Shown here: in pieces, positions 6,200-63,285 of the stretch
How the letters are laid out: the number at the start of each line of letters is the position of its first letter
Position numbering within the stretch: the first letter of the stretch is position 1
Assembly: GCA_963768175.1 (NCBI GenBank)
Contig: CAVYGQ010000001.1
Span: 840,717 to 904,716, forward strand
From: Candidatus Doudnabacteria bacterium
Lineage (GTDB): Bacteria; Patescibacteriota; Doudnabacteria; UBA920
Direction: 5' to 3'
Length of the DNA: 64,000 bases
Notes under the pieces: generated by a model
Told to the model about the DNA's origin: nothing
The model's database searches: none
What the model saw: the letters and a program-made list of their open reading frames with translations, nothing else
Translations under genes and position numbers: made by a program

Positions 6200-6202
6200 A
6201 AG

Positions 6203-9434: not shown

Positions 9435-9570
9435 ATAATGTGGTGATGATTGCTACCATGTGGCGCTATTGGCCACTCAATATAGATAATATATGCTTAT
9501 CTGTCAACCGTCAACCCCGCCGCTCGCGAGCGGCGGGTCAAGAAACGGCTCTGATAGAAGGAGGAATACA

Positions 9571-9894
9571 ATGCTTGATCAAGAGTTGAAGAGTTCTGCG
9601 ATTGCCCAAAACCCTCTCTTGGAACCGATGCTCGGGCGGAGTTCGTATACCTGCACGATTTTCGTGATTGATCTCCTTGGGGGGAAATCGGATAACTTTA
9701 GGATTTCAGACGAAGTTCTGGAGCAAATTCGAAAGAGGGTGGAGGGGGCGGAGGATGCGACCTACTACATCATCCACTTCATCCCCAGAGACTTTGAAGT
9801 TAGTAGTCTTGAGGACTTGCCTGAGTCCGAGAAAAAGAAGGTTCGCGAAGCGCTTAACCAAGCACCCTTTCCTGTTTGTATCGTTTGGGTTTAG
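9571..9894 (+). CDS. Hypothetical protein (107 aa), GC-rich islet A
   Basis: ATG at 9571 is preceded by GAAGGAGG (9557-9564). The track ORF 9493-9894 is the same frame with a longer start. No family recognised. Confidence 0.55.
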   Translation: MLDQELKSSAIAQNPLLEPMLGRSSYTCTIFVIDLLGGKSDNFRISDEVLEQIRKRVEGAEDATYYIIHFIPRDFEVSSLEDLPESEKKKVREALNQAPFPVCIVWV

Positions 9895-24244: not shown

Positions 24245-24388
24245 CTTCTTCGCTAAAGCTACGAAGTGCGAGCAACTTAGTTGGTATGCTCATTTTAATA
24301 GTTAACTGTAAATTTTAGAAGCGAAGAAGTGCCCTACGTAGCCTTGGCGAAGTAGGGCAGAAAACGGCTATATTCGGTGTCCTTATGT

Positions 24389-27496: not shown

Positions 27497-28132
27497 TCAG
27501 GCCGTTGGGAACAAGTAGGCCAAGATCTCATCGTGGGTAGCTTGGCCAATCTTCCCTGCCGACAGGTATAGTCCTAGCAGTTCTGATATCCGCCAAGCTA
27601 CGTAGCCTTTATAGTTCGCATTGGCGAGCTCGGCCATGCCGCCCTGCTCCCGGTCCACGAGCATGAAGATACCCGCGACATGGAGACGTTCGGCTTCTAA
27701 CACCTTAATGGACGCCAGTTTGGAATCCGCTTTGGTGATCAGGTCATCGAAGAGAGCCACGCGCTGGCCAGGCTGGTAAGCGCCGTCAATGTTGGCGCCA
27801 GAGCCGTGTGTCTTCATCTCTCGTGGAGTGATCATTGGTATCGTGGTAAAACTGGAGATTAGCGTAACCAGCGGAGTGGCGGCGGTCGGTACGTCGGCAA
27901 CCAAGTCACAGGTCACGCCTTCCATCATTTCTGTTAGGAGCCATGCGGTGTCCACCAGCAGCGTTGGAAACGAGCGGAGCAGGCGGAAGTTCAGGTAGAA
28001 TGGTGAGAGCGGGGCGTCGGGGTTTTTTTCGTGTAACTTGAGACGAAACCCTTTGCCTTGAGGCGACCTGGACTTGTCCAGGAAGATGCCGGCGTCAAAC
28101 CACGCCAGCGCGAGAGTTTCTTTGTCGATCAT
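27497..28132 (-). CDS. Orotate phosphoribosyltransferase-like PRTase, GC-rich islet C (second copy)
   Basis: From ATG 28132: MIDKETLALAWFDAGIFL...KLHEKNPDAPLSPFYLNFR...VALFDDLITKADS (PRPP-binding motif). The track ORF start at 28222 overlaps the upstream gene and is rejected. Confidence 0.7.
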   Translation of the reverse strand: MIDKETLALAWFDAGIFLDKSRSPQGKGFRLKLHEKNPDAPLSPFYLNFRLLRSFPTLLVDTAWLLTEMMEGVTCDLVADVPTAATPLVTLISSFTTIPMITPREMKTHGSGANIDGAYQPGQRVALFDDLITKADSKLASIKVLEAERLHVAGIFMLVDREQGGMAELANANYKGYVAWRISELLGLYLSAGKIGQATHDEILAYLFPTA

Positions 28133-28136
28133 GGTG

Positions 28137-28937
28137 TTAGTCCTGGCAGGCCTCGATGATGTTGTCGATGATGAGCTCCACCGCCGCCAGAGGATCCTGG
28201 GCGGCAGTAATGTCGCGGCCAACTACAATGCCGTTAGCGCCGCCGCTGATGGAGTTTCCTGGCGTTGCCACTGCCTTCTGCTCTTGCTTTGCGGAGCCAG
28301 GCAGTCGGACGCCAGGGGTGTAAATCAGGAAGTCCGGCCCGCAGGCTTCGCGGATAGCGGCGACTTCCAAAGGTGAGGCGATGACACCGTCGCAGCCGCA
28401 TTCCTGGGCCAGCTTGGCGTATCGAACAACGAGCTTGAGCCGATATGGCTCCTCGACCCCTTCTGGTTTCAGGCCAAGATCCACCAGGTCTTCCTCGCCG
28501 AGGGTGGTCAAGAGAGTTACGGCCAGCAGGAGAGGCTTGCGTTGCAGGTCGAGCTTAGCGGCGGTGGTGTCGATGGCTTCGCGGGCGGCTTTCATAGCCG
28601 CCTTGCCGGCAAAGGCGTGCATGTTGAACATAAGCGGTCGGAGACGGGTCAGGGCTGTTGCCGCGCCCTTGACCGTATTGCCTATATCGGCGAGTTTGCA
28701 GTCCATGAAGTCGGTGCCGACAAGCTCGCCAAACAGGTCCCGCAGGTCCTCGAGCGCCGTAAGCGCATCATCGTAGTCGGCGGTCACCAGAGTGGTAAAC
28801 ACCGAAAGTATGAACTCAAAGCCGATCTTGAACCCGCGCACCTTGCCTTTCAGCATGGTGACGAGCCCTGTGGCTTTGATCACATTGTCTACATCCAAGG
28901 CCACGATAATCCGTGACCCCGCGTCTTTTCGAGTCAT
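28137..28937 (-). CDS. Orotidine-5'-phosphate decarboxylase-like protein, GC-rich islet C (second copy)
   Basis: 266 aa. RIIVALDV, FKIGFEF and DCKLADIGNTV are OMPdecase family motifs. Confidence 0.75.
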   Translation of the reverse strand: MTRKDAGSRIIVALDVDNVIKATGLVTMLKGKVRGFKIGFEFILSVFTTLVTADYDDALTALEDLRDLFGELVGTDFMDCKLADIGNTVKGAATALTRLRPLMFNMHAFAGKAAMKAAREAIDTTAAKLDLQRKPLLLAVTLLTTLGEEDLVDLGLKPEGVEEPYRLKLVVRYAKLAQECGCDGVIASPLEVAAIREACGPDFLIYTPGVRLPGSAKQEQKAVATPGNSISGGANGIVVGRDITAAQDPLAAVELIIDNIIEACQD

Positions 28938-31364: not shown

Positions 31365-32435
31365 ATGTATAAATTATTTAGGCCGTTAATCTTTAAAGCT
31401 TCGTCCGATCCCGAAGACATACACAGGGTGGTGATGGGGCTTTTGCATATGGTTGGCAGCATTAGTCCACTTGGCTGGGCGGAGCGGCGGGTTTTTGATT
31501 TTGCCGACAAAAGGCTGGCACAAAACCTTTTTGGTTTGAATTTTAAAAATCCGGTCGGTCTGGCTGGAGGTTTTGATAAGCATGGGGAAGCCATTTTAGG
31601 CTTGGCCAATGTAGGTTTTGGGTTTTTGGAAATCGGCACGGTCACACGTTTTGGTCAGCCGGGCAACCCCAGGCCGCGCATTTTTAGATTACAAAAAGAT
31701 GAAGCCTTAATTAACCGTATGGGTTTTAACAACGAAGGCGCGGATTTTTTGGCAAGCAAATTGTCAAAAACAAAAAAATTAACAATTCCGCTGGGCATTA
31801 ATTTGGGTAAGTCTAAAGTTACCGAACTGGCCAATGCGGCGGAAGATTATTTGTATTCCTTTTCCAAACTTTACGATTATGGCGATTATTTTGTGGTTAA
31901 TATTAGCTCGCCCAATACCTCGGGGCTGCGGCAGTTGCACGAAAAAAGTTTTTTGGTTGATATTTTGTCGGGTTTGAACGGTTACAGATTAAGGCAGCCG
32001 GTAATAAAACCGGTCTTGGTAAAAACCGTTGTGGACTTGTCTTTGGAGGCAATTGACGAGGCATTGGAAGTTTGCAAAAACCAAAATGTTGACGGTATAA
32101 TTATTAGCAACACTTCAATTGGTAGGGATGGCTTCAAAATTAAAACCGATGAAACAGGAGGTTTAAGCGGCAAGCCGATAAGACAGAAATCTACTGATTA
32201 TATAAAATATATTCATCGGCAGGCTCCAGGCCTTCCAATTGTAGGTGTTGGTGGAATTTTTAGTGCGGAAGATGCTTACGAAAAAATTAAAGCGGGAGCA
32301 TCGCTTGCCCAAATTTATACCGGATTGATTTACGAAGGCCCGGGAGTGGTAAAAAAAATAAACCAGGGTTTGGTAAAATTGCTTGAGCGCGACGGGTTTA
32401 AAAATATTGGTGAAGCGGTTGGGAAAGGAAACTAA
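31365..32435 (+). CDS. pyrD: Dihydroorotate dehydrogenase (quinone), class 2
   Basis: 356 aa. GLNFKNPVGLAGGFDK, GFGFLEIGTVT..GQPGNPRPRIFRL and IVGVGGI motifs. Confidence 0.9.
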   Translation: MYKLFRPLIFKASSDPEDIHRVVMGLLHMVGSISPLGWAERRVFDFADKRLAQNLFGLNFKNPVGLAGGFDKHGEAILGLANVGFGFLEIGTVTRFGQPGNPRPRIFRLQKDEALINRMGFNNEGADFLASKLSKTKKLTIPLGINLGKSKVTELANAAEDYLYSFSKLYDYGDYFVVNISSPNTSGLRQLHEKSFLVDILSGLNGYRLRQPVIKPVLVKTVVDLSLEAIDEALEVCKNQNVDGIIISNTSIGRDGFKIKTDETGGLSGKPIRQKSTDYIKYIHRQAPGLPIVGVGGIFSAEDAYEKIKAGASLAQIYTGLIYEGPGVVKKINQGLVKLLERDGFKNIGEAVGKGN

Positions 32436-32846: not shown

Positions 32847-33239
32847 TTGAATATGAATTTTCCAAGCAGAATATTCCATAGGGTCGTTGCAATGCTGTAT
32901 GTGTTCGGCGTTGTTCTCCTTACATCCAGAGTACTTATCGGGTTTGAGCCGAGCTTGATACCGAGAATAGTTGATGTGATTATTTTAATTGGCGCTCTTT
33001 ATGGAGGAATTGGTTATCTAAAGTTCTGGAAAAATATTGATTTTCCAAGAACAATCACAAAGGTACTCTACGCCATTATCACTTTTCATCTTCTTGGATC
33101 TGTTATTATACATGCTTTTGTTATCGCCATTCCCAACAATAAAATCTTAGATATATTTCCTGTCTGGTATAGTTATATTATGGCTCCGATAATGGCTTTA
33201 TTTGCTTACTATAGCTGGAATGTGAGATTTAAAAAATGA
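32847..33239 (+). CDS. Membrane protein (130 aa), hypothetical
   Basis: Four hydrophobic helices. No family recognised. Confidence 0.55.
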   Translation: MNMNFPSRIFHRVVAMLYVFGVVLLTSRVLIGFEPSLIPRIVDVIILIGALYGGIGYLKFWKNIDFPRTITKVLYAIITFHLLGSVIIHAFVIAIPNNKILDIFPVWYSYIMAPIMALFAYYSWNVRFKK

Positions 33240-33476
33240 TCATAATTTGCCGCCAAAGAAAAACTTGAAATTGTTATCGGCGCGGCTCCGCCGCCTTTCC
33301 GGATTTTCGCGGGGGGGGATTTTCCGGGAAAATGCGTTCGGACTAATTCAAGAATACTGCACCAATTTAAAATTTCAAATATCAAATTACAAATTTCAAA
33401 CGAATGTCCAATGACAGAATTTTGGAATTTAATAATTAGGATTTTATTTGACATTTGAAATTGGAAATTTGGAATT

Positions 33477-34058
33477 ATGCTCAATATCCCCGTAATTTTA
33501 GGTTCGGTGCGCGAGGGCCGCAAGAGCGAGGCGCCAGCTAAATATATAGTGGAAAAAATCAAAACCGCCGGATACCAAACCCAGCTGGTTGATTTTAAAG
33601 AGCTGCCTTTGCCGTTTTATGACGCTAAGGCTGTGCCGGTGGTATATTTTAAATCGCAATATCCCAATGCCAATGCCCAAAAGTGGAGCCAGATTGCCCG
33701 GGCGGCGGACGCTTTTGTTATTGTTTCTCCGGAATACAATCACGGTTACTCGGCGGTTTTAAAAAATGCGCTGGATTGGGGCTATTTGGAGTTTGAGAAA
33801 AAACCGTTTGGTTTGGTCGGGGTTTCTAATGGAACGGTCGGAGGGGCGCGGATGATTGAAAGCCTGCGTCTGGTGGTTGCGAATTTTGGTGCGGTGACTA
33901 CGCAGGAAACCATTATGATCGGCCCGGTACAAAGCTACTTTGCCGATGACGGGGAAATGATAAATCCCGAACTGGACAAAAGAATCGACGGCCTGCTAAA
34001 AAGTTTAACCTGGTGGGCCGAGGCTTTGAAAGATCACAGATACGCAGATAAAAAATAA
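33477..34058 (+). CDS. NADPH-dependent FMN reductase family protein
   Basis: 193 aa. ILGSVREGRKS...FVIVSPEYNHGYSAVLKNALDW is the typical motif. Confidence 0.8.
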   Translation: MLNIPVILGSVREGRKSEAPAKYIVEKIKTAGYQTQLVDFKELPLPFYDAKAVPVVYFKSQYPNANAQKWSQIARAADAFVIVSPEYNHGYSAVLKNALDWGYLEFEKKPFGLVGVSNGTVGGARMIESLRLVVANFGAVTTQETIMIGPVQSYFADDGEMINPELDKRIDGLLKSLTWWAEALKDHRYADKK

Positions 34059-34134
34059 TAACACAGATTTAAAAACACCTGGCAATCCAGGTGTTTTATT
34101 AGTCTAATTTGCCCCCTATCTGTGTATTTGTGAT

Positions 34135-35085
34135 CTAAACCACTTTCCACTTCCCTTGCTCATCTTTCATCAGCTTTCCGGCTACGGAAAATCCGGCCGC
34201 TAGTTTATGCCCGCCGCCGCCAAAAATATGGGCGATTTTGGAAACATCTATATTTTTAAAAGTATCCGAGCGCAGGCTTCCCTTTATTACCCCGCCGTCC
34301 TGGCGCAAAAACATGGCGAACTTGGCTTCGGGCATGGTATTTAAGGTCTCGGTAAACCCTTCAAAGGCGGCCTGCGGCAAACTTGTGAATTCCGCCAAAT
34401 CTTTTTCCGTCATTACGGAATAAATGATCTTATTTTTTTTGTCGTAGTAGGAATTTTCCATAGCTTTGCCCCAGGCTTTTAAAATTTGAGGCGATTTGTT
34501 TTTGTAGGTTTCCCGGATAATTTTATGGCTCTGCGCGCCTTTGCGCAAAAGCAGTCCGGCGGTTTTTAGTGTGGAGCTTTGGGTGTTTGAGTGCATAAAA
34601 CCACCCGTGTCGGTAATAATTCCTGTGAGCAGACAAGTGGCAATGTCTTTGGTAATTGGCCAGTTATTAAAGTTAAAAAAGTCATAAACCAGTTCCGCCA
34701 CCGAAGATTTTTTTGCATCCACCACATTGACATGGCCAAAGCCCGTATTGTCGGGATGGTGGTCTATATTTAATATTGGGATATCCAATTCCATAATTTT
34801 TGGGCTGCCACAGCGGGTTTTTTCCGAGCAGCCAAAAGTAATCACAAGATCAAAGTTATTATTTTCAATATCATCGACAATTTTTTCCGCACCGGGCAAG
34901 AAGCTTAAATTCGGCGGCACTCCTTTTTTAACGGCGTAAGTTACCTGCTTGCCCATTTTTTCCAGTTGTTGCCCCATAGCCAAAAGCGCGCCCCCGTCAT
35001 CGCCGTCCATGCGCTCGTGCATGGTTAGGATAATACGCTTTGATTGATCAATTAAGTTTTTTGCTTTTGTAAATTCTTGCTCCAT
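34135..35085 (-). CDS. nrnA: DHH/DHHA1 phosphoesterase (NrnA-like oligoribonuclease / pAp phosphatase)
   Basis: 316 aa. HERMDGDDGGA, NIDHHPDN and C-terminal GGGHKLAAGF (DHHA1). Confidence 0.8.
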   Translation of the reverse strand: MEQEFTKAKNLIDQSKRIILTMHERMDGDDGGALLAMGQQLEKMGKQVTYAVKKGVPPNLSFLPGAEKIVDDIENNNFDLVITFGCSEKTRCGSPKIMELDIPILNIDHHPDNTGFGHVNVVDAKKSSVAELVYDFFNFNNWPITKDIATCLLTGIITDTGGFMHSNTQSSTLKTAGLLLRKGAQSHKIIRETYKNKSPQILKAWGKAMENSYYDKKNKIIYSVMTEKDLAEFTSLPQAAFEGFTETLNTMPEAKFAMFLRQDGGVIKGSLRSDTFKNIDVSKIAHIFGGGGHKLAAGFSVAGKLMKDEQGKWKVV

Positions 35086-35205
35086 AATACCGTTAATGCA
35101 AAATTTTCAATTTTTAATTTTCAGTTTTCAAACAATTTTTAATTATCCAATTTTAAAATTAAGTTATTGAAAATTGTTTAGAAATTAGAAATTGAGAATT
35201 ATAAA

Positions 35206-35691
35206 TTATTTTTCCTCGTGTATTTTACGTATAACTTCGTCTATATGCTGCACATATCTCGGGCTAGTGTCTAGATGGAAGCTTATTCGGGGAATGACTT
35301 TGGTGGCAAAGTGCTTGTTAACTTCGCCCTGGAGGTCGTAAATGTTTTTTCCCAAAAATGTTAAGATTTTATAGTCCAAAGATAGAGCAGTCTGAGATTT
35401 TTTATCAGCCTGCGACAAACTTTTTTTCCCTCTCCCTTCTTGCCCGCCGTAGCCTTGGCGAAGGCGGGTGGGAGAGGGTGCCCCAAGCCCGTCTTGGGGC
35501 GGGTGAGGGTCTGGGTTAAAAATAGAAATCCAAATTTTGGCGTACTTCATATCTTTGCTGGTTTCCACTTTGGTTATGGTCACCAGGCCTTTTTGCCAAT
35601 CCAAAAATTTATGCAAAACCGGCCCCAATTCGTGCTGGATTAAGGAGTTTACCTTAGCTATGCGGTTGGTGTCTTTTTTTACCGGCTTCAT
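35206..35691 (-). CDS. rbfA: Ribosome-binding factor A with a roughly 45-aa in-frame palindromic insert
   Basis: RIAKVNSLIQHELGPVL...ITKVETSKDMKYAKIWIS ... FHLD...HIDEVI are RbfA motifs. The inserted PDPHPPQDGLGAPSPTRLRQGYGGQEGRGKK is encoded by hairpins at 35428-35499. Confidence 0.8.
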   Translation of the reverse strand: MKPVKKDTNRIAKVNSLIQHELGPVLHKFLDWQKGLVTITKVETSKDMKYAKIWISIFNPDPHPPQDGLGAPSPTRLRQGYGGQEGRGKKSLSQADKKSQTALSLDYKILTFLGKNIYDLQGEVNKHFATKVIPRISFHLDTSPRYVQHIDEVIRKIHEEK

Positions 35692-35750
35692 AAATTTAAG
35701 TTAGCTGAGTATTGTATATCTTTTATTGCCTTTTAGCAAGAGTGTAAAGT

Positions 35751-36482
35751 TTATATGGTATTCCAAAAATGGTTGAGAATTATGCTTACGGTTTCATATA
35801 TATCGGCGCTTTCAACCACCAGCCCCAGCGAGCTGTCCCCTTCCTGGGTAATAAAAGCCACTTTTCCGTTATAGGCAAACATTTCATTTTTAAACGGAAA
35901 ATTTTGGGCTGGTATTAACTTGGTTTGCCTTAAAGCGAATTTGTCTTTTGATTGTAAATCTTGATAAAAGGGAATATCAGGGGCGATTATTTTTACAAAA
36001 TTTCCTTTTTTTACCCTTCTTTCCACGTATTCTTCGCCCCAATAGTCTCGGATTTTTTCATCAGGCAGTTTTGTGGAAAGTACCTCTATATAGTTGGCAT
36101 GCTTGGATAAAATATCTTCATAAATTTCCTTAATGCCCTCAAGCCCTTGATATATCCTGACTGATGGTTTTTTGCCGGCATGGCTCTGGATAGCCAAAAG
36201 CTGTCCCATGATGTTATCTAAGGCATTCTCTTTTTGTTTAATCAATGGAAAAATATTCTGTGGGTCTTCCACGATGTATATTTTGCGTTTGCCTTTCAAA
36301 ATAGTTTTAATCAATCCTTTTTCTTTTAAGCTGTCTACGAGTTCATAAACCGTGGCGCGTTTTAATTTGGCATTATTAACCAGTTCCTGCATAGTCGCGG
36401 GACCGGTTTGCAGGCCGGCCAAGTAAAGAGCGGACTCTTTTTCGCTTAGTCCGATTTTTTGCAGGTTTTGTTCTAAATTCAT
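35751..36482 (-). CDS. TrmB-like winged-HTH transcriptional regulator (paralog 2)
   Basis: 243 aa. IGLSEKESALYLAGLQTGPATMQELVNNAKLKRATVYELVDSLKEKGLI. Confidence 0.75.
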   Translation of the reverse strand: MNLEQNLQKIGLSEKESALYLAGLQTGPATMQELVNNAKLKRATVYELVDSLKEKGLIKTILKGKRKIYIVEDPQNIFPLIKQKENALDNIMGQLLAIQSHAGKKPSVRIYQGLEGIKEIYEDILSKHANYIEVLSTKLPDEKIRDYWGEEYVERRVKKGNFVKIIAPDIPFYQDLQSKDKFALRQTKLIPAQNFPFKNEMFAYNGKVAFITQEGDSSLGLVVESADIYETVSIILNHFWNTI

Positions 36483-36632
36483 AAAGTATCGGTAAAACCG
36501 ACGATATTTTAATTACAATATAACCTTATTTTAAAGGATATTTTTAATATTGTCAATAATATATATCAAGATTATTGATATATTTAACAAATTAGTGTAT
36601 AGTGTTTGGTCAACCTTAAGGAGGGTTGGGTT

Positions 36633-37277
36633 ATGAGAATATTAGTCGTTGACGACGAGCCCATCAATTTGCTCGCCGCGCAGCAGACTTTGGTTGGGCA
36701 CGAGTTAGTGCTCGTTGACGGTTACGATAAGGCAACGGTACTTTTGGAGCCGGCCGCATACGAAGAAGAGATCACAAAACTCCAGGGAGGGGAAGGCCAC
36801 CGCATTAGCTACCGGCAAGTGCAAGAGATGTTACGCAAGTCTACCAAAGTGTTTGATGCCGTCTTAACTGACCTGCTCATGCCCCCAGGCAAGAGGGGGC
36901 AATCACCGCGGTCTCGCGAAACGTTCCAGAACCTCCCATTTCCTTCGGGGGTGATGCTCGCCCTGCACGCGATCCGGCAAGGCGCAAAGTATGTCGCTGT
37001 GTTCACAAGCGGGATCAACCATCACCACAATCCCGCGGTCTGGATGATGGAGCCGCTCAGGTGGGGCTGGAACGCTACGCCGCAGAAGTTCTTGGTCAAC
37101 GGAGCCATTTTGGGATTCTTTGATGAGTGCGATGGCGGTCGCGTCCCTGTAGATGGCACTGTGTGTCAGGAATGCAATGGCAAAGGTTGCCTAACATATT
37201 GTCATGAAACTGGCAAGCTTTTTGCCAAGAACTGGGGAAGGGTTCTTGAGGAGCTCATCAAGCACCACAACAGCTAG
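36633..37277 (+). CDS. Stand-alone receiver (CheY-like)-related protein with C-terminal zinc knuckle, GC-rich islet D
   Basis: ATG 36633 follows TAAGGAGGG. MRILVVDDEP ... FDAVLTDLLMP ... VAVFTSG follows the REC beta1/beta3/beta4 pattern. C-terminal CQECNGKGC..C. Homologous by eye to 40433-40876. Confidence 0.65.
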   Translation: MRILVVDDEPINLLAAQQTLVGHELVLVDGYDKATVLLEPAAYEEEITKLQGGEGHRISYRQVQEMLRKSTKVFDAVLTDLLMPPGKRGQSPRSRETFQNLPFPSGVMLALHAIRQGAKYVAVFTSGINHHHNPAVWMMEPLRWGWNATPQKFLVNGAILGFFDECDGGRVPVDGTVCQECNGKGCLTYCHETGKLFAKNWGRVLEELIKHHNS

Positions 37278-37286
37278 GGAGTTTCG

Positions 37287-37328
37287 TACCGGACGCGAAT
37301 GCACTTTTTGCGCCCGGTTTTCTTTTGG
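37287..37328 (+). terminator. Rho-independent terminator after the receiver-like gene
   Basis: ACCGGaCGC gaatgcacttttt GCGcCCGGT followed by TTTCTTTT. Confidence 0.55.
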
Positions 37329-37396
37329 CCAAAAATAAACCCCCTTATGGGGGTTCGGCGTTATCTCAGCGTCGCTATCAGCGATTGATCAGCGGT

Positions 37397-39331
37397 TTAT
37401 AACGTCTTCTGTTTTATCTTTTCCTCAAAACTCTCCAAGACATCCCCGACTAAAATTTTAATCGGGGTTTTTATTTTCATGCCGAATTCTTCGCCGGAGT
37501 TTACCGACTTAGATATAACTTTGCTTTGCTGGAGCTCCTCAATTTCTCCGCGGCCTAGCTCGGTATCGGCTCGCCAAACGTTAATGTGGCTGGTCTTTTT
37601 TAACAAGCCTTCTTCCACGCGGCCGCCAACAATCATTTGGCCTTTTTCCGTCATAAAAATTGCTAGAACTTTAGCCTTGCCTAAAACGTGTTTTTCCAGC
37701 TCAGGCGTAAACATCTTTATAACCGCCGAAGTAATATCTTCCAAAAGTTCGTAAATGACGTCGTAGGTATCTATAATAACCTTTTTTTGCTTGGCTAAAT
37801 TAATGGCTTTGGGGTTTACTTTGGTGCGAAAGCCGACAATTACGGCTTTGGAGCTGCCGGCGAGCAAAACATCGGACTCGTTAATTTCCCCCACGCCTTC
37901 GCTTAAGATGTTAATTTTAACCTCATCATTTTTTAATTTGGCCACGCTCTGTTTAATGGCTTCCAGCGAGCCGGCTACGTCGGTTTTTAAAATCAAATTT
38001 AAAGTTTTATTTTCCAAATTCCCCACAATGGCTTGTTTGCTGGAAAGTTTGTGGCTGTGGTTTTTGCGCTGGACCAAAACGGCAATAGCCTTGGCTTCGT
38101 CCAAAGTCGCGGTGGTCTGCAAAATGTCGCCGGCCTGCGGAACTTCCGAAAGCCCGGAAATTTGCGCGGCCGTGGAAGGCGTGGCTTCTTTAAGCTTGCG
38201 GCCGGTCTCGTCTTCCAGGCTCCTGACCCTGCCAAACGCGGCGCCCGCGGCAAAAATATCGCCAACCCTTAGCGTGCCGTTTTGCACCATAACCGTGGCC
38301 GTGGCCCCTTTGCCCTGGGTGATTTTGCTTTCTATAATTGTGCCCACCATTTTGCCGTGCGGGTTGGCGCGCAAATTTTCCATTTCCGCCGTCAGTAAAA
38401 TCATTTCTAAAAGCTGGTCTATGCCCTTGTTTTGTTTGGCGGAAATTTCGCAGGCAATGACCTTGCCTCCCCATTCTTCGGTAAGCACCCCTTGACCGGC
38501 CAGCTCTTGCTTAACCCTGGTAACGTTGGCTTCGGGCTTATCTATTTTGTTTATGGCCACAATCATGGGCGTGTTGGTGAATTTGGCGCGATTGATGACT
38601 TCCAAAGTCTGCGGCCTGACGCCGTCGTCCGCTGCCACAACCAACACGATAATGTCCGTTACGTTGGCACCGCGCGAACGCATCTCAGAAAAAGCTTCGT
38701 GGCCAGGAGTGTCCAAAAAAGTTATCCATTTGTCGTTTTTCTTTACTTTGTAGGCGCCAATATGCTGGGTAATGCCGCCGCTTTCGCCTTCGGCCACTTT
38801 GGTTTTACGGATGGTATCCAAGAGTGTGGTTTTGCCGTGGTCAACGTGTCCCATAATGGCAACTATGGGCGGGCGCGGTTTTAGGTTTTCTTCTTTTTCA
38901 GCTTTTAAGACTTCGTTTAAAAACCCTAAGCCGTATTCCGCTACGCTCTGGTCAGCTTCTGTCTCTACCTCAAAACCTAAATCCTGGGCCACAATGCTGG
39001 CGGTATCAAAATCTATTTCCTCGTTAATGGAAGCCATGACCCCGTTGTTTATCAGCACGGTAATAACTTTGGTTACCGGCAATTTTAACAGTAAGGCAAA
39101 ATCGCGGACTTTAATGAACGAAGGCAATTTAACTTTTATTGGCGTAATAGGAAGGCTGGTCGAAGATCCTGAGCGATTAGTCGAGGGACCAAAAGCTTCC
39201 AGCAGTTTTCGCGCTACGTAATTGTCTACCTTGTTGGCTTTGGGCGAAATGAAATAGCCTTTCTCCTTGGCCTTAAGGCGAACGTCTTGTATGGACATAT
39301 TCAGTTGTGAGGAGAGAGATGAGAGGTTCAT
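37397..39331 (-). CDS. infB: Translation initiation factor IF-2
   Basis: 644 aa. [20 protein letters not shown] and NKID GTPase motifs plus C-terminal IF-2 domains. Confidence 0.95.
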
Positions 39332-39417
39332 GTTTTATTCCTCTCCTTTTTAAGGAGAGGCTAGGTGAGGTTATTTTGCGTTTAACTTATTGATTATACT
39401 CATAAATCTTAATAAAA

Positions 39418-40174
39418 TCAAGACATTTTAGCGCTTGGACTTGCGTCCCAAATTGTCTCAAACAACTTAATTTCTCCAGCCACGATATCCGGGCTTTCAA
39501 TAATTACCGTTACCAATTCTTTTTTGGAACTGAAGATTGCCACTTTATTTCCGTAAATTAGTTTTGAACTGTTATATAAATGGTTTTCCGGCAAATATTT
39601 TACTTCCCTTAGAAGTTCGGCGTGATTGGCTGTTAAAAAAGATTCCGGCATCTGGGATTTAAAATATAAAGCTTTAAAGTTTATACGTTTTTTCAATCTG
39701 GTTGGGATATAGTAGTTTAAATCCCAGATCCTCGCCGATGACTTTATGGATTTCGCTAATTGAGCCAATGTGCCTGACGGTGGAATTGAAAGTTTTGAGG
39801 GAATCCTCCGAGGCAATAAAGTATCCTTCTTTGCCTTCGTAGTAAGTAATCTGCGGTTTCAGATCTGGTTTTTGCGCCAGACTGTTTAATTGCGGCAAGA
39901 TACTTTTTAAGTCGTCTAATTCTTTTTCTGTTTTAGATGCCAAAATATGCGGCGGTGTGGCCACAAATTTTAACCCGCTCCGCATTTTAAAACTGCCCAT
40001 TAAACCCTTTTTCTCCAAAGCCTGGAAAATTACATAAGCCGAAGTTCGTTTTAGTTGCGCTTCCAGCGCCAATTCCGACATCCCCGCCTCACCAAGTTTA
40101 AGCGATGCCAAATACAAAGCCACTTCGCCGTCTTCCAGCCCTAATTCTTTAAGAGTTTGTTTAATGTCTTGCAT
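39418..40174 (-). pseudogene. TrmB-like regulator (paralog 3) split by a frameshift
   Basis: ORF 39674-40174 holds the HTH (LGLEDGEVALYLASLKLGEAGMSELA..KRTSAYVIFQALEKKGLM). ORF 39418-39816 continues the family C-terminal domain in another frame (WDLNYYIPTRLKKRINFKALY.. compare WGEEYVERRVKKGNFVKII in paralog 2). The frames switch near 39723-39733. This could be a sequencing error. Confidence 0.65.
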
Positions 40175-40432
40175 ATTAAATACAAATAAATTGATGCCTG
40201 AGCTTGTCGAAGGCTCAATTTATTTGTCCCTTCGACTTTGCTCAGGGGACAAATAAATTTAAATTTGACGTTTTTTACGTCAACAGTATATCAAATCTAA
40301 TAAAAATAAGCAAATAAAGGCAAAATATATAATAAATTATGCCACAATTATTGACGTTATGTCAATTTTGATGTATTGTTATCGGTCAAAACAAAAACAC
40401 CTGACGAGGTTAACAACGCAAAGGAGGTAGTT

Positions 40433-40876
40433 ATGAATATTTTGGTTGTAGAAGACGATCCGAAGCATATGAAGGAGGCTGTTGAGGTCATTCAAGCCGC
40501 CGGACACGAAGTGATACAGGCAACTGATATGTATAGAGCCAGGGAGTATCTCTACGATGACCGCCCCGACGGAGTAATTACTGACCTTTTTATTCCGGAT
40601 GGTGCGGGAGGAGTAAATGAAGATGCGGATCAGCCGCGAGGCCTAGGAATTGTCTTAATGGCGCAGCAGGAAGGCATTCCTTGCATCATCTGCACCGCAG
40701 GATATCACCACGGATCCAAGTACAACTGGATCTGCGGACTCGGGCGGAGGTTGCACTGGCCACCGATGGTAGATCAGCTTCAGGATCGGCACAACTACGA
40801 GGTGGAAAGCCAGTCGAAAGACTGGCAAGAAGCGCTCGACACCCTGGTCAAGATCATAGTGGCCAAGGGATATTAA
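40433..40876 (+). CDS. Stand-alone receiver (CheY-like)-related protein, GC-rich islet E
   Basis: ATG 40433 follows AAAGGAGG. MNILVVEDDP ... PDGVITDLFIP ... CIICTAGYHH. Confidence 0.6.
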   Translation: MNILVVEDDPKHMKEAVEVIQAAGHEVIQATDMYRAREYLYDDRPDGVITDLFIPDGAGGVNEDADQPRGLGIVLMAQQEGIPCIICTAGYHHGSKYNWICGLGRRLHWPPMVDQLQDRHNYEVESQSKDWQEALDTLVKIIVAKGY

Positions 40877-40995
40877 CAGCCAATGTGTTCAAAAACCGGC
40901 GGTTGTTCGGCGTTAGGAGGCGCGCGAACTACTGACCGGTTTTGTTTTGGCAGAATTGTTTACTTGCTAAACTCACGGCCGTGAGTTTAGCAAGT

Positions 40996-41322
40996 TTAGG
41001 TATTTGCTCTGGCCAAAGTCGCAAATTGCAAAAAGTATTTATTTAAACCTTCCGGGTTTTGCGGTTTATCGGATAGCTCCAGGCAGGCGTTTTCCCGCAG
41101 GCGGCATAGCTCTTTTAGTCTTGGCCCGCGCCAACGGGGATCGTTTATGGTTAAATCCGTCAATTCAAGCATTCTATCAAAGGCTTTTTGGAAATAAGCG
41201 GGCTGGTTTTTTTGTTTCCATCTTAAAGCCCGTCCGAACTCACTGCCTATGTTGCCAAGCTGTTCTTCAAGCGACATTTTTTGCCATTTTTGTTTTATCT
41301 CAGGACCATGGATGTATCCCAT
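40996..41322 (-). CDS. Hypothetical helical protein (108 aa)
   Basis: ORF only. No family recognised. Confidence 0.5.
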   Translation of the reverse strand: MGYIHGPEIKQKWQKMSLEEQLGNIGSEFGRALRWKQKNQPAYFQKAFDRMLELTDLTINDPRWRGPRLKELCRLRENACLELSDKPQNPEGLNKYFLQFATLARANT

Positions 41323-41423
41323 AAATTTATTTTAGGTTATCTGCGTTCTAGATCCCGGATATTTTTTGTGGCTTGTGATAATCATCAGCACAAAAAATTC
41401 CGGGATGGAACACTAAGGGGTAT

Positions 41424-42266
41424 TTAGAATGTACGGTTTTTTCCCACAATCATCTTCAGCCTCTGAGGGATTATTTCCACGGTGCTGGGGAATTTGGCAA
41501 CAACGCGGCCGAGCATGGTCAAATTGGTGCCGCGCGGCTCCAAAAATTCAATTTTTTTGCATTTAATGACTGTGGTATTGGGCACCTTTTCCAGACAGCC
41601 TTCTGAAATAATGTTGCGGTATTTTAAAACCTGCATTTTATTAAGGTGCTCCATTATGAGCAGATCTAAATTGCCGTCCGTGGGGTTGGCGATTTTTTCG
41701 CTTTGGCAGGAAGTGGAACGGATGTTGGCCACCAGTCCGCCGAGCCCGTTTATGGTCACGTTGTAAGAATCATCCACCCGGATGGTAAAGCCTTTTGCCT
41801 CCGAAGAAAGCAGCTTCAGGCTTTGCCACAAAGAGGCGGTTTTGATGTTGTGGGACATTACGCCAAATTCCAGAAAGCTGATAAAATAATTGCCGGAAAT
41901 TTTGGCCAGGTCAATTTTTTCTATGCGCCTGGCGGCAATGGTTTTTACGCCCAAAAAGACGTTTTCAATGCCTAAAATTTTTGCCAAATTTGAATTTTCA
42001 TCAAACGGGATAAAACCCAAAGTAAAATCCCGCCCCTTAAGCGCCGCCAGCATTAAGTTAAAGGTATCGTCACTGCCGCAGGCCACCAAAGTATTGGTGC
42101 CTCTTTGGCTGGCCGTATCCACCAAATCCTGCACGCTGCGCAAGGGAGTTACCCTTGAAGCCTCGCCGGAAACTTTAAATTCGGCCAAAAGCCCGGAAAG
42201 CTCGGTCTGGAGCTTCTCAAATTTTTCCATGGGCAAATTGTGCTGGTCGAGGATATAGTAGTGCAC
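41424..42266 (-). CDS. Diacylglycerol/lipid kinase catalytic-domain (YegS/BmrU-like) protein
   Basis: 280 aa. LVACGSDDTFNLML sits at the position of the GGDGT motif, within overall DAGK_cat-like topology. Confidence 0.65.
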   Translation of the reverse strand: MHYYILDQHNLPMEKFEKLQTELSGLLAEFKVSGEASRVTPLRSVQDLVDTASQRGTNTLVACGSDDTFNLMLAALKGRDFTLGFIPFDENSNLAKILGIENVFLGVKTIAARRIEKIDLAKISGNYFISFLEFGVMSHNIKTASLWQSLKLLSSEAKGFTIRVDDSYNVTINGLGGLVANIRSTSCQSEKIANPTDGNLDLLIMEHLNKMQVLKYRNIISEGCLEKVPNTTVIKCKKIEFLEPRGTNLTMLGRVVAKFPSTVEIIPQRLKMIVGKNRTF

Positions 42267-42369
42267 AAAAGAAATGACAAAAATTAAAAAAATAATAAAA
42301 ATGACAAAAATAAATGGGCCTATAATTTTTGCTCATTTATGCCAATTTTGTCATTTTTGCTCATTACCT

Positions 42370-42788
42370 TTACTCTTCTGGTTCAATAAGGGGTTCGGCT
42401 TTTTCCACGGGAGTTTTCTTGCCGCTGCCCCCGCTTACTCCGTTGCCGCCCATAACGCACTTGCCGGAAAATTGGGCACCGTCTTCCACCCTAAAAACCG
42501 TGCAGACAATATCCCCTAAAACTTTTGCCGTACTCTGTAATATCAAATGCCCGGATATTTTTAAGTTACCCTGTATTTCCCCGCCGACCACGGCATTGCC
42601 CGCCAAAATGTCTGCCGCAATTTTGGCCCCGGGACAACAAATACGCTCTGGCTAGTTTTGACTTTGCCGCTTACCTGGCCTTCTATTTTTATGTTGCCTT
42701 CGCTGTTTAAATCTCCTTGAATTTTAACGCTGGGGCCGACTACGGTTTCGGCCGGGCTGTTTAGGTTCTCGTCTAAGGTTTTGTCCAT
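42370..42788 (-). pseudogene. Bactofilin-like protein split by a frameshift
   Basis: ORF 42561-42788 (..VKIQGDLNSEGNIKIEGQVSGKVKTSQSVFV) and ORF 42370-42606 (AGNAVVGGEIQGNLKISGHLILQSTAKVLGDIVCTVFRVEDGAQFSGKCVM) together give a bactofilin beta-helix repeat. The frames switch at the CCCCGGG run near 42627-42633. Confidence 0.65.
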
Positions 42789-42984
42789 AAATGTCTTTTT
42801 CCGCCGGGTTTCCCGGCTTAATTAATGGTTGGGTCCGGTATTTGTTTAGGTTTTAATATAAATTTGAAGCATTAAATCCGAAATTCGAAACAAATTCTAA
42901 TATCTAAATTGTAAATTCAAAATCCTGGATGTGCCCGTTTAAATATTAAGTATTTGAATTTGTGAATTGTTTCGGATTTCGATA

Positions 42985-43455
42985 TTAGGATTTCAAATTT
43001 GCCTTTTCTACTGCCTGTTGCTCTTCATCGGTCAGTTTAATCTCACATTTCCCCTGGTCTATTTTTTTGGTGTAAATCCTGTTTTGCTCGCGTCCATACA
43101 TGGAGGTAATAATTATTCCGGTATTGTGTTCATCCAATAAAGCCAAAGAAAAACTAAAATTCCCGCCGCCATCGTTAAACGGATTAAAACGTACAAGCCC
43201 CACTTTCTGAACGGCAAAAGTAACCTTAGTTTTTAGTTCATTTAATTCCTGCATCAAAGCCGTTTCCTGCTCCCGGCTGTTCTGTAATTCTTGCTTTAAG
43301 GAGTAAATCACACTTTCTAAACTTAGAGCTTTTCCACCCGCGAAAAAAGCCTTTTTTAGCTTATTAATAGAAATTATTTGCCAGGTGCAGTATCCGGCTA
43401 AAATCAGGGCCAAGCCGGCCAAAATTAAGGTGATTGTAGGTAGCTGTGTTATCAT
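42985..43455 (-). CDS. DUF4446-family protein
   Basis: 156 aa. N-terminal TM helix, coiled coil, then VGLVRFNPFNDGGGNFSFSLALLD, which is typical of DUF4446. Confidence 0.7.
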   Translation of the reverse strand: MITQLPTITLILAGLALILAGYCTWQIISINKLKKAFFAGGKALSLESVIYSLKQELQNSREQETALMQELNELKTKVTFAVQKVGLVRFNPFNDGGGNFSFSLALLDEHNTGIIITSMYGREQNRIYTKKIDQGKCEIKLTDEEQQAVEKANLKS

Positions 43456-45713: not shown

Positions 45714-48209
45714 ATGGCGGAAACAAACAACAATTTGGGTTTATCATCAGCCGAAGCCGCTAGCAGATTAAGGCAGTACGGCTATAACGAAATTGCGGAA
45801 AGCAAAAGGCTATCCGGGCTTTTGGCTTTTTTGTTAAGGTTCCGCAATCCGCTGGTGCTGATTTTGGTCTTTGCGGCTACGATATCAGCTGTAACCGGGG
45901 ATCCCGTCAGTGCGCTGATTATCATCAGTATTGTACTGCTGTCCGTTATCTTAGATTTTTTTAATACCTACAAATCCCAAAAAGCCGCGGAAGAGCTGAT
46001 AGAAAAAGTGGAAATTACAGCCGAGGTATTGAGAGGCGGCATAGTGACTCCCCTGCCGCTGCGCTTGATTGTGCCCGGAGACGTGGTGGAACTTGAGGCC
46101 GGAGACGTAATTCCCGCAGACGGCAAAATTTTAAGCGCCAAAGATTTATTTTTGAACGAATCTTCGCTAACCGGCGAATCTTTTCCCGCGGAAAAGCAGG
46201 AAGGCTTGCCTATTTTTTTGGGAACCAACGTGGTTACCGGCACTGGCCGGATGCTGGTGGAAGTTACGGGTAAAAAAACCAAGTTCAGCAAAATCGCGGA
46301 AAGTCTGGAAGCGCCGGAAAGGCCTACGGATTTTGACCGCAGCATAAAAGATTTTAGCTACTTAATTATGAAGATAACTTTTGTCTTGGTTATCTTTATT
46401 TTTTTGGTTAACGCCATACTCAAAGGCAGCACTTATATTTTGGAGTTGTTTTTGTTTGCCGCGGCCTTGGCCGTGGGCTTGACGCCGGAGCTTTTGCCCA
46501 TGATTATTACGCTTAATTTATCCAAGGGCTCTTTGGCCATGTCCAAGCACGGCGTAATTGTAAAAAAACTATCGGCCATCCAAAACTTTGGCGCTATGGA
46601 TGTATTGTGCACCGATAAAACCGGCACGTTGACGGAAGACAGGATTGAACTGGTCAAGTACGTGGACGCCGAGGGCAAGCCGGATGAAAACATTTTTAAG
46701 TACGCTTACCTTTCCAGCAGTTTCCGCAGCGGCTTTAAGAATCCGCTGGATGTGGCTGTAAAAAATTTCAAGATGTTTGATATTGGCGGCAAATCCGCCT
46801 TCGCTGAAGCTTCGGCGGATGACTCGCTATCAAATATATTAATGGGAGTCAAAAAAATAGACGAAATCCCCTTTGATTACCGGCGCAAGCGCGATTCCAT
46901 TATCGTGAAAACTTCTCAAGGCTATGAGCTTATTTCCAAAGGCGCGCCTGAAGAAATGTTTGAGACCTGCAGTTTTTATAGCCAGATGGGTAAAAAACTC
47001 ACCCCTACTATAGCCAAAAAATTGGAAAAAGAATATCAGGCTTTAAGTGCCGACGGCTTTAGGGTTTTGGCTGTGGCCTGCAAGACGCTTCCGGAAAAAA
47101 CGGCATACGAAAAAGAAGACGAAAGGGATTTGGTTATATTGGGCTTTATTGCTTTTTTGGATCCGCCCAAAAAGAGCGTGACCGAAACCCTGCGGACTTT
47201 GGAAAATTATGGCATCGCCATAAAAGTTATTACCGGCGATAACGAAATTATTACCAAAAAAATCGCTCAGGAAATTAATTTGCCCGTTTTGGGCAGTTTG
47301 ACCGGGGCAGAGATAGAAAAATTGACCGATCGGCAGCTAGCAATAGATGCGGAGAAAACTACAGTTTTTGCGCGCGTTACGCCGGAACAAAAAAAGCGCA
47401 TTATTTTGGCTTTGCAAAAAAATAAACACGTAGTCGGGTTTATGGGCGATGGTATAAATGACGCGCCGTCGCTTAAGACCGCGGACGTGGGCATTTCGGT
47501 TAACAACGCGGTGGACGTGGCCAAGGAATCGGCCGATTTAATTTTATTGCACAAGAGTTTAAAGGAGCTGGCTTTAGGCGTTATCCAGGGCCGCAAAACT
47601 TTTGCCAATACTTTAAAGTATTTAATGATGGGTTTGAGCTCAAATTTCGGCAATATGTTTTCCATGGCCGGAGCATCCATGTTTTTTCCGTTTTTGCCCA
47701 TGCTGCCGGCCCAGATTTTGCTAAATAATCTGCTGTATGACGGCTCGCAGTTTGTCATTCCGCTGGACAATGTGGATGAGCAGGACATTGCCAGGCCACG
47801 GCAAATGAAGATCCATTTTTTGCGCAGATTTATGGTGGTTTTTGGCATTTTAAGTTCGGTGTTTGATTTTGTGACGTTTTTAGTGTTAACTTTTGTCTTC
47901 CATTATACCAACCACTACTTCCAGACCGGCTGGTTTATTACCTCTTTTGCCACGCAAATTTTAGTGGTATTTGTTATCCGCACCAAGCAGGTGCCGTTTT
48001 TCAAAAGCAAGCCGGCTAAGTCCTTAGTTATTTCCGTGTTTAGTTTTTTGGCTTTAGCCCTGCTTTTGGCCTTAGGCCCGATAAAAAATATCTTCGGCTT
48101 TGCCCCGCTTTCGCTGGCCATGGTTTTAAGCGCTTTCCTTATTACCCTGCTCTATTTAATCTGTATTGAGTTCGCCAAAAGCAAATTTTACCAATATGTT
48201 TCGGAATAA
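45714..48209 (+). CDS. mgtA: Magnesium-translocating P-type ATPase
   Basis: 831 aa. CTDKTGTLT, MGDGINDAPSLKTADVGISV, and an MgtA-like N-terminus (GLSSAEAASRLRQYGYNE). Confidence 0.85.
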   Translation: MAETNNNLGLSSAEAASRLRQYGYNEIAESKRLSGLLAFLLRFRNPLVLILVFAATISAVTGDPVSALIIISIVLLSVILDFFNTYKSQKAAEELIEKVEITAEVLRGGIVTPLPLRLIVPGDVVELEAGDVIPADGKILSAKDLFLNESSLTGESFPAEKQEGLPIFLGTNVVTGTGRMLVEVTGKKTKFSKIAESLEAPERPTDFDRSIKDFSYLIMKITFVLVIFIFLVNAILKGSTYILELFLFAAALAVGLTPELLPMIITLNLSKGSLAMSKHGVIVKKLSAIQNFGAMDVLCTDKTGTLTEDRIELVKYVDAEGKPDENIFKYAYLSSSFRSGFKNPLDVAVKNFKMFDIGGKSAFAEASADDSLSNILMGVKKIDEIPFDYRRKRDSIIVKTSQGYELISKGAPEEMFETCSFYSQMGKKLTPTIAKKLEKEYQALSADGFRVLAVACKTLPEKTAYEKEDERDLVILGFIAFLDPPKKSVTETLRTLENYGIAIKVITGDNEIITKKIAQEINLPVLGSLTGAEIEKLTDRQLAIDAEKTTVFARVTPEQKKRIILALQKNKHVVGFMGDGINDAPSLKTADVGISVNNAVDVAKESADLILLHKSLKELALGVIQGRKTFANTLKYLMMGLSSNFGNMFSMAGASMFFPFLPMLPAQILLNNLLYDGSQFVIPLDNVDEQDIARPRQMKIHFLRRFMVVFGILSSVFDFVTFLVLTFVFHYTNHYFQTGWFITSFATQILVVFVIRTKQVPFFKSKPAKSLVISVFSFLALALLLALGPIKNIFGFAPLSLAMVLSAFLITLLYLICIEFAKSKFYQYVSE

Positions 48210-51357: not shown

Positions 51358-51511
51358 CCCCGTTAGAAGTCCAGCATATATCTTTTTAGCGGGTACTTTT
51401 AAGGTGTCCGACTTCTAACGGGGTTGATAAAATAAGCTAAATCTAATAAAATATCTAAGCAACATTTTGTTGATCGTTTAAGGTTTGCCCTACGTAGCCT
51501 TGGCGAAGTAA

Positions 51512-61935: not shown

Positions 61936-61989
61936 AGAGTAGTGAATCCGCCTTCGCTAAAGCTACGGCGGACAAGTAGGATAAAACAC

Positions 61990-63130: not shown

Positions 63131-63285
63131 AGTTTCCTCCTTGGGGATTGAGCTTTATAATCGTCAAAAAATGAAAAATAGTCAATAAAAATCGACTATT
63201 TATTTAGTGGATATAAATTTTATTAGTAAACATTGATTAAATATGTTATATTTTTGTTGTCAGAAAGCAATGACAAATATTGTTT

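Follow-up and report, generated by a model that had tools for sequence, protein, structure and literature searches.

The window analyzed here is a 64,000-nucleotide (nt) stretch of the genome of a Candidatus Doudnabacteria bacterium (NCBI GenBank assembly GCA_963768175.1, contig CAVYGQ010000001.1, positions 840,717 to 904,716 of the forward strand), in which the IF-2 gene infB has a divergently transcribed gene pair on either side. Each pair consists of a TrmB-like winged-helix regulator gene (TrmB1, TrmB2) and, head-to-head with it, a gene for a stand-alone protein resembling the receiver (REC) domain of response regulators (REC1, REC2). A preliminary description took the two pairs for diverged copies of one pair, and proposed that they form either a split response regulator or a transposable regulatory cassette. 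We instead favor, with moderate confidence, two independent local modules, each with a TrmB regulator, a predicted palindromic operator, and an exchangeable orphan receiver as the target. All four genes lie where they were originally placed, and the features of the locus are as follows.

35751-36482, minus strand: TrmB1, a short-form TrmB-family winged-helix regulator of 243 amino acids (aa; Pfam TrmB, 3.1e-13)
36483-36632: pair 1 intergenic region, with back-to-back divergent promoters
36561-36583: candidate TrmB1 operator, a perfect inverted repeat ATATATCAA-N5-TTGATATAT (100% complementary) that overlaps the REC1 -35 box
36633-37277, plus strand: REC1, a stand-alone atypical receiver of 214 aa with one DnaJ-like zinc knuckle (CQECNGKG...CLTYCHETG)
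37337-37356: GC-rich hairpin GAACCCCCATAAGGGGGTTT, followed on the minus strand by a T-run, where REC1 and infB converge; a probable terminator common to both
37397-39331, minus strand: infB (IF-2; Pfam GTP_EFTU, IF-2, IF2_N)
39418-40174, minus strand: TrmB2 (Pfam TrmB, 5.6e-9), split by a +1 frameshift at ~39727 into a 166-aa N-terminal open reading frame (ORF; 39674-40174) and a C-terminal remnant (39418-39816)
40175-40432: pair 2 intergenic region ('platform'), with a conserved promoter, operator, and 5' untranslated region (UTR)
40265-40283: candidate TrmB2 operator, a perfect inverted repeat TTGACGT-N5-ACGTCAA within the TrmB2 leader, unique in the window
40433-40876, plus strand: REC2, a stand-alone atypical receiver of 147 aa, a minimal form lacking the zinc knuckle
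40962-40995: perfect 17+17-nt palindrome (100% complementary) 3' of REC2; a probable bidirectional terminator

REC1 and REC2 are 25% identical over their best local BLASTP alignment (E = 3e-5) and 28% over a multiple alignment, and the motifs that had been aligned by eye prove to be right, those common to both proteins being invariant positions of a larger family. Among 167 aligned sequences (25 seeds plus the top matches of an exhaustive profile search), the acceptor Asp (REC1 D80, REC2 D51) and one Gly position are invariant, 165 have the Pro four residues beyond the Asp, and 165 have an acidic residue after strand 1 (D8), with D7 and D8 in REC1 and E7, D8, and D9 in REC2; both proteins thus keep the acidic pocket and phospho-acceptor Asp originally attributed to them. 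Strand 4 is followed by Thr or Ser in all 167 (Thr in 151, Ser in 16), with REC1 T125 and REC2 T88 ending predicted strands 120-124 and 84-88, and four or five residues farther on comes a His, also found in all 167 and directly preceded by a second His in 151. A Lys-x-Trp motif stands before the last helix, with the Lys in 162 of 162 sequences (REC1 K199, REC2 K129) and the Trp in 161 of 162. The Lys is preceded by an insertion of 15-70 residues, and in REC2 predicted strand 5 (112-114) lies 15 residues earlier. At least two CxxC motifs are present in 53 of the 167 sequences as DnaJ-like CxxCxGxG knuckles in an insertion that separates helix 4 from the Lys, and the CQECNGKGC knuckle previously noted in REC1 belongs to this family-wide insertion. 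Because the pocket positions and the extra His are conserved across the 167 sequences, the REC-like proteins are a real and distinct receiver subfamily, with an intact phospho-acceptor pocket and an extra invariant His.

A word-indexed search of 5.8 billion proteins returns only a dozen close relatives for each of REC1 and REC2, and an exhaustive profile search with 25 sequences finds at least 192 cluster representatives with a cutoff of E<=1e-30, or 2,567 with one of E<=1e-10, with the best 150 matches being almost all full-length, in proteins of 132-307 aa. In species-representative genomes, the true family members found are from Patescibacteria (records with the titles Saccharibacteria, Minisyncoccia, or 'Patescibacteria group') and DPANN archaea (Woesearchaeota and Pacearchaeota), and matches in other phyla cover just the generic N-terminal half. 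Pfam, NCBIfam, PHROGs, and PADLOC yielded only generic receiver and TrmB matches, and no curated model in them names the REC-like family. A phage origin of the REC-like genes is unsupported, because scans of viral contigs with both subfamily profiles gave no relatives.

Sequence profiles for receivers recognize these proteins only in part. Pfam Response_reg (PF00072) scores REC2 at 30.7 bits against a cutoff of 30.2, over residues 3-59 only, and REC1 at 13 bits, below the cutoff; a family profile likewise matches PDB receivers over positions 1-62 only (best E = 2.5e-7). This N-terminal restriction, together with the invariant His and frequent second His after the strand-4 Thr/Ser (which canonical receivers lack) and the long insertion before the conserved Lys, raises the alternative that the REC-like proteins put a receiver scaffold to another use, as small enzymes (for example, an Asp-nucleophile phosphatase that employs the invariant His) or as metal-binding proteins (for example, a metal sensor built on the His-His pair and the acidic pocket), and are plain targets of the local regulator. 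The apparent lack of a kinase is also in keeping with this: HisKA and HATPase_c are absent from the Pfam lists of neighboring genes at the surveyed loci, and a crude, unvalidated regular-expression search found no kinase motif combination in 354 ORFs of 77 loci, nor in the window, in agreement with the initial remark that the window holds no histidine kinase. Nonetheless, we regard such a non-receiver function as highly improbable, as all of the canonical pocket residues are kept, no enzyme family in Pfam, NCBIfam, PHROGs, or PADLOC matches, and whole-domain structural matches are exclusively to receiver domains. The REC-like proteins have the (beta-alpha)5 flavodoxin-like receiver fold that the preliminary description had supposed.

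The identification of the partners as TrmB-like is likewise borne out, with both passing the Pfam TrmB (PF01978) cutoff of 25.6 bits (TrmB1, 49.8 bits; the TrmB2 N-terminal ORF, 36.2 bits), as do the partner regulators at three other surveyed loci (L001, L003, and L007). TrmB1 aligns to residues 10-185 of the 342 residues of Pyrococcus furiosus TrmB (3QPH; E = 4e-6), a stretch comprising the winged helix, the dimerization helix, and the beginning of the effector domain, and the TrmB_C effector-binding domain (PF11495) has no match in the window regulators; TrmB1 is a short form without the C-terminal sugar-binding part. The frameshift reported for TrmB2 is present in the sequence as one extra T (GAGGA[T]CTGGGAT at ~39727) by comparison with intact orthologues at four related loci, to which the repaired TrmB2 is 95% (L078), 80% (L081), 77% (L083), and 74% (L007) identical. 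The window contains four TrmB-like genes altogether, and the other two (8682-9434, minus strand; 63274-63999, plus strand, running off the end) have no REC-like neighbor. We note that the one at 8682-9434 faces a GC-rich 133-aa ORF (9493-9894; guanine-plus-cytosine [GC] fraction 0.50), a pattern of AT-rich regulator and GC-rich small gene without a receiver.

The preliminary description left open whether the pairing is kept in related genomes, and it recurs widely. Loci around family members were collected from assemblies, species genomes, and metagenomes, and scanned with local hidden Markov models built from the window and the first matches; a combined alignment of 25 sequences was too diverse for locus scanning, and subfamily alignments were therefore used. 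The scan gave 61 distinct REC-like genes, 44 of which have at least 900 bp of upstream sequence and were counted for pairing. A divergent winged-helix regulator lies within 900 bp of 23 of the 44 (52%), with 20 being TrmB-like and three being tandem Lrp/AsnC-like genes, the latter in archaea. Two more archaeal cases fall below the thresholds (L020, TrmB-like; L021, Lrp/AsnC-like), and loci with two pairs occur elsewhere (L033, tandem; L049, mirrored). TrmB-like genes are common enough in these genomes, with four in the window, for chance adjacency to need consideration. However, against a generous background of 5% the observed 23 of 44 has a binomial P of ~1e-18, and paired examples are present in both Patescibacteria and DPANN archaea; chance adjacency is effectively refuted, with a probability close to nil, and the association of REC-like with winged-helix genes is genuine and spans bacteria and archaea.

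Among the REC-like genes lacking a TrmB-like neighbor, five are preceded on the same strand by an ORF of 97-126 aa, which may be an alternative receiver partner:

L038, 3121-3477; L054, 3142-3498; L071, 3071-3367: ORFs similar to one another by eye
L037, 2853-3143; L047, 2900-3277: Cys-rich ORFs

The preliminary description of the two window pairs as diverged copies of one pair is not supported. At 26% identity, TrmB1 resembles TrmB2 no more than either resembles the unpaired TrmB-like proteins of the window, and pairs 1 and 2 do not appear to be copies of one ancestral pair. A mirror-tree test on 19 regulator/receiver pairs similarly found no correlation between the identity matrices (Pearson 0.13, Spearman -0.03, Mantel p=0.067), and paired and unpaired TrmB-like proteins form no separate clusters and are interspersed (p=0.27). 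Individual loci illustrate the discordance in both directions. At L027 and L046 the regulators are 85% identical and the receivers 39%, with DNA homology spanning the regulator and intergenic region and fading ~50 codons into the receiver; at L039, L049, and L016 the regulators are 88-95% identical and the neighbors differ; and at L001 and L045 the receivers are 71% identical and the regulators less than 25%. Because the identity matrices are uncorrelated and the same regulator stands beside different neighbor genes in relatives, these histories argue against an obligate, coevolving split response regulator, and favor a local regulator with an exchangeable target gene.

A comparison with five related loci reveals where the exchange occurs. 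The infB gene of the window is 91% identical to that of L078 and 74% to that of L080, and in L078, L080, L081, and L083 a TrmB gene lies directly upstream of infB, although that of L080 is more distant (32% identical to TrmB2); because this arrangement is conserved in the clade, pair 2 does not appear to be a recent displacement. In L080 the TrmB-like gene (4673-5446) overlaps the start of infB (5431-7449) by 16 nt, which implies that there the regulator is cotranscribed with infB. Comparison of the window with L078 shows DNA homology at 84% identity over 39383-40428, which includes TrmB2 and the entire intergenic region, ends 5 nt before the REC2 ATG (40428/40433), and resumes only at 41421, a few bases from the 3' end of a diacylglycerol-kinase-like gene. 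The slot in between (40429-41420) holds REC2 and a 108-aa ORF in the window, and in L078 it holds a 59-aa ORF, a REC-like gene only 21% identical to REC2 and two genes away from the TrmB2 orthologue, and a BrnT/CopG toxin-antitoxin pair. At this position L081 has an unrelated protein of 202 aa, L083 an unrelated one of 152 aa, and L080 a periplasmic binding protein, such that the slot from the TrmB2 promoter to the diacylglycerol-kinase-like gene has a different gene set in every one of these four relatives. Because relatives carry other genes beside the conserved TrmB2 and intergenic region, regulator and promoter are the stable part of the arrangement and the receiver is the exchangeable one. 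Just past the 3' end of the kinase-like gene is a hairpin (41351-41407) with a stem of ~20 bp (ATCCCGGATATTTTTTGTG…CACAAAAAATTCCGGGAT), single-copy in the window, and an 88%-identical copy lies at an unrelated intergenic site in L078 (11649-11705).

The other flank of infB is variable too. Pair 1 does lie between infB and rbfA, as first described, and in L080 and L083 this slot is empty, with infB directly adjoining rbfA; L078 and L081 have in it a different TrmB gene (in L078, 27% identical to TrmB1) and a GC-rich zinc-ribbon gene of 90-93 aa. Adjacency of infB and rbfA is thus the simpler state in the clade, and both flanks of infB are variable slots. The zinc-ribbon genes (L078, 5885-6166, minus strand; L081, 5914-6186, minus strand) have GC at third codon positions (GC3) of 0.71 and four CxxC motifs and face the TrmB-like gene, which suggests that TrmB-like regulators control a further class of cargo as well, small zinc-binding proteins.

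These comparisons bear directly on the proposal of a split response regulator, in which the receiver would dock in trans on the shortened effector domain that the neighboring TrmB-like protein retains and phosphorylation would control DNA binding. In its favor, the adjacency is strong and recurs in two domains of life, the receiver has the expected fold and no output domain, the TrmB-like proteins lack the C-terminal sugar-binding subdomain and so need another input, and the divergent promoters would coexpress both proteins. There is also a precedent in VemR-HrpG, where a single-domain receiver reportedly binds a transcription factor (PMC9923393), and Galperin et al. raised a like idea for archaeal neighbors of REC and helix-turn-helix (HTH) genes (PMC5847659). 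Against it, there is no mirror-tree signal and several pairs are strongly discordant, about half of the receivers have no such neighbor, regulators of the same architecture lack receivers within the same window, and the partner family becomes Lrp/AsnC in some archaea. Moreover, orthologues of the same regulator (74-95% identical) have nonreceiver genes as neighbors in L081 and L083, and in L078 the receiver close by is only 21% identical. With evolutionary discordance and nonreceiver cargo beside the same regulator, an obligate regulator-receiver complex is unlikely, and we consider the split regulator as a whole doubtful.

Variable slots also invite the suggestion that regulator and receiver move as a unit, a mobile cassette inserted on either side of infB. 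Insertion polymorphism is real at both slots, with three states of the infB-rbfA slot (window, L078/L081, and L080/L083) and no DNA homology of pair 1 to L078 from the very end of rbfA to that of infB; the genomic contexts of pairs vary between genomes, the receivers are GC-rich, and at one locus (L004) a gene weakly similar to rve (integrase core domain) adjoins the receiver. The hallmarks of a transposon are what is missing: neither window pair is flanked by terminal inverted or direct repeats, target duplications, an integrase, or a transposase, the repeats within 35000-41500 being only short and at chance level, with no recombinase among the neighboring window genes. Nor were relatives found in the viral contigs scanned. 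Furthermore, the regulator and intergenic region of pair 2 go back to the ancestor of the clade, with variation limited to the receiver side, and regulator and receiver have discordant histories. Joint movement of the pair is thus quite improbable.

As the preliminary description noted from a hand count, the REC-like genes are GC-rich and the TrmB-like genes are not: in the window, with a GC content of 44%, REC1 (0.544) and REC2 (0.519) rank fifth and sixth of 59 genes, and TrmB1 (0.387) ranks 56th. The REC-like gene has a higher GC content than its partner regulator in 19 of 19 pairs, by a mean of 10 points; GC3 is 15 points higher overall and higher in 16 of the 19, and the GC of the receiver gene exceeds that of its own locus in 18 of 19. 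This bias extends to the zinc-ribbon cargo genes but not to the other cargo. REC1 has no homologue closer than 38% identity in a protein collection in which the adjacent DHH gene has homologues at 85-91%. Taken together, the GC excess, the distance of the REC1 homologues, and the replacement of receivers fit lateral exchange.

The intergenic regions have the organization expected of local control. In pair 1, the minus-strand promoter (TTGACA at 36556, 17-nt spacer, TAAAAT) matches the consensus at 11 of 12 positions and the plus-strand promoter (TTGATA at 36575, 17-nt spacer, TATAGT) at 10 of 12, and the AGGAGG sites ascribed to the REC genes are present as AAGGAGG in both, in REC1 8 nt upstream of the ATG. 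Elsewhere in the window, the core of the candidate TrmB1 operator, TATCAA-N5-TTGATA, recurs only once, with a single mismatch (46766-46782). It has the N5 geometry of the TrmBL1/Tgr motif (TGM), differing by one base per half-site; TGM is TATCAC-N5-GTGATA, and TrmB-family operators are palindromic (PMC4158304). In pair 2, the plus-strand (TTGACG at 40351, 17-nt spacer, TATTGT) and minus-strand (TTGACA at 40365, 18-nt spacer, CATAAT) promoters have overlapping -35 hexamers (40351-40365), and the candidate operator TTGACGT-N5-ACGTCAA is kept in L007, L081, and L083, with one base different in L078. The operator, -35 boxes, 5' UTR, and ribosome-binding site align and are kept across five genomes with five different downstream ORFs. 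This layout is as expected for an autoregulated local repressor or activator, with binding predicted from the sequence. Between the pair 2 operator and the TrmB2 start lies ~80 nt of nested perfect inverted repeats (40182-40259) with 13- and 14-nt arms, which align poorly to the L078 and L081 leaders, are absent from L007 and L083, and have no Rfam match.

A plausible scheme for the two modules is that a TrmB dimer binds the palindrome between or over the divergent promoters, autoregulating its own gene and gating transcription of the neighboring receiver gene. The receiver, once made, would bind Mg2+ and be phosphorylated on the conserved Asp, either by an unlinked kinase or by a small molecule such as acetyl phosphate, and would then signal through protein-protein contact with a target, perhaps including the regulator itself as feedback. 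The receiver is probably a locally regulated accessory gene and not half of a fixed two-protein regulator, and receivers would be GC-rich cargo, exchanged laterally and placed under control of the resident regulator.

Several observations weigh against this interpretation. First, the cargo-swap conclusion draws on a small sample of close relatives, with five genomes, and about half of the REC-like genes stand without a winged-helix regulator next to them. Second, the GC excess of receivers could reflect codon bias instead of lateral transfer. Third, because the 15-70 residue insertion precedes the conserved Lys, the position of the Lys relative to strand 5 is atypical and canonical phosphotransfer chemistry is not assured. 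Fourth, the palindromes partly coincide with -35 hexamers, and TTGACGTTATGTCAA at 40351-40365 may be simply two overlapping -35 boxes. Finally, the TrmB2 frameshift may either deregulate module 2 or stem from an error in the assembly.

The conserved pair 2 region also accommodates a compromise between exchange and contact, a modular split response regulator with swappable input. Here the TrmB gene, its operator, and the 5' UTR would form a fixed platform, with kinase-independent 'His-His' receivers and other small GC-rich proteins exchanged by recombination at the start codon, each incoming receiver docking on what remains of the effector domain in the resident TrmB-like protein, in an arrangement common to Patescibacteria and DPANN archaea. 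We consider this decidedly unlikely. The module is a real and recurrent one assembled from parts of known kinds, a TrmB-family regulator and a single-domain receiver; what is new is the receiver subfamily of Patescibacteria and DPANN archaea, its systematic GC excess, and the cassette-like turnover of receivers beside a conserved regulator and promoter.

Other features of the neighborhood are set apart from the modules. Between the DHH gene and rbfA is an AT-rich inverted repeat (35102-35207) whose 53-nt arms are 74% complementary. The rbfA gene itself (35206-35691, minus strand) contains an in-frame GC-rich insertion of 138 nt (35377-35514; 45 aa, …PDPHPPQDGLGAPSPTRLRQGYGGQEG…) that is missing from rbfA of the close relatives L078 and L080; its core (35439-35467) is repeated at 61948-61976 (90% over 29 nt), with 16-mers at 24337-24352 and 51493-51508, and it looks like a short dispersed repeat that landed within an essential gene. 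Compositional outliers include pyrF (28140-28937), which at a GC of 0.60 is the most GC-rich gene of the window, and an adjoining 211-aa ORF (27500-28132; GC 0.56). The window also carries pyrD (31365-32435), and the cluster of pyrD, pyrF, and a phosphoribosyltransferase gene is syntenic in relatives, beside FMN-reductase and DHH genes. An Rfam scan of 33000-43000 gave no real match.

Very little is known about sensing and regulation in Patescibacteria and DPANN archaea. The present analysis defines a sizeable unannotated receiver subfamily with an intact pocket, an extra invariant His, and no kinase seen nearby, and links it on solid statistical grounds to the dominant local regulator family, the TrmB-like proteins, in both bacteria and archaea. 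It also provides candidate operators and a natural experiment, in which the same regulator and promoter are found with different cargo in close relatives, making the long-standing question of whether REC-only proteins interact with neighboring HTH proteins directly testable. The consistently higher GC of the receivers and their rapid replacement also point to lateral exchange of signaling parts among episymbionts.

No literature on TrmB and receiver pairs in Patescibacteria or the Candidate Phyla Radiation was found, and a search on Saccharibacteria returned nothing relevant. Like the CheY-like single-domain response regulators, the REC-like proteins have a (beta-alpha)5 fold, an acidic pair, an acceptor Asp followed by x-x-M/I-P, a Thr/Ser after strand 4, a Lys before helix 5, and no output domain, and action by protein-protein contact is expected of both. 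They differ from CheY-like proteins in the invariant His, usually His-His, within an extended strand 4-helix 4 loop, in the 15-70 residue insertion, often with DnaJ-like CxxCxGxG knuckles, before a Lys-Asp-Trp motif, and in being recognized by sequence profiles in the N-terminal half only; in addition, no kinase was found nearby, the relatives identified are only in Patescibacteria and DPANN archaea, and the genes are GC-rich relative to the host genome.

The regulators compare with archaeal TrmB and TrmBL1, with which TrmB1 shares the N-terminal TrmB winged helix and dimerization helix, and the modules share palindromic operators at promoters (candidates here) with the N5 spacing of TGM; autoregulation is plausible as well. 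However, the present regulators are ~245 aa as opposed to ~340, have no TrmB_C sugar-binding match, reside in a bacterial host with sigma-70-type promoters, and have a receiver gene as the presumed target in place of sugar transport or glycolysis genes. For direct contact between a receiver and a DNA-binding protein the comparison is Xanthomonas VemR-HrpG, in which a receiver-only protein is reported to modulate a DNA-binding regulator by direct contact (PMC9923393); it differs from the present pairs in having neither gene adjacency nor a family relationship to them, and an interaction of this type appears disfavored here by the evolutionary discordance. The closest published parallel is in Thaumarchaeota, where REC-only genes are occasionally divergent from ArsR-type winged HTH genes (arCOG03067 pairs, e.g., Nmar_0452-0453; Galperin et al. 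2018, PMC5847659). These too are stand-alone receivers head-to-head with a winged-helix DNA-binding protein, although the partners are ArsR/HTH_20 proteins rather than TrmB-like or tandem Lrp/AsnC-like ones, and the present pairs are from other lineages, including bacteria. The thaumarchaeal pairs are also only occasional, whereas about half of the family described here is paired, with the receiver side being exchangeable.

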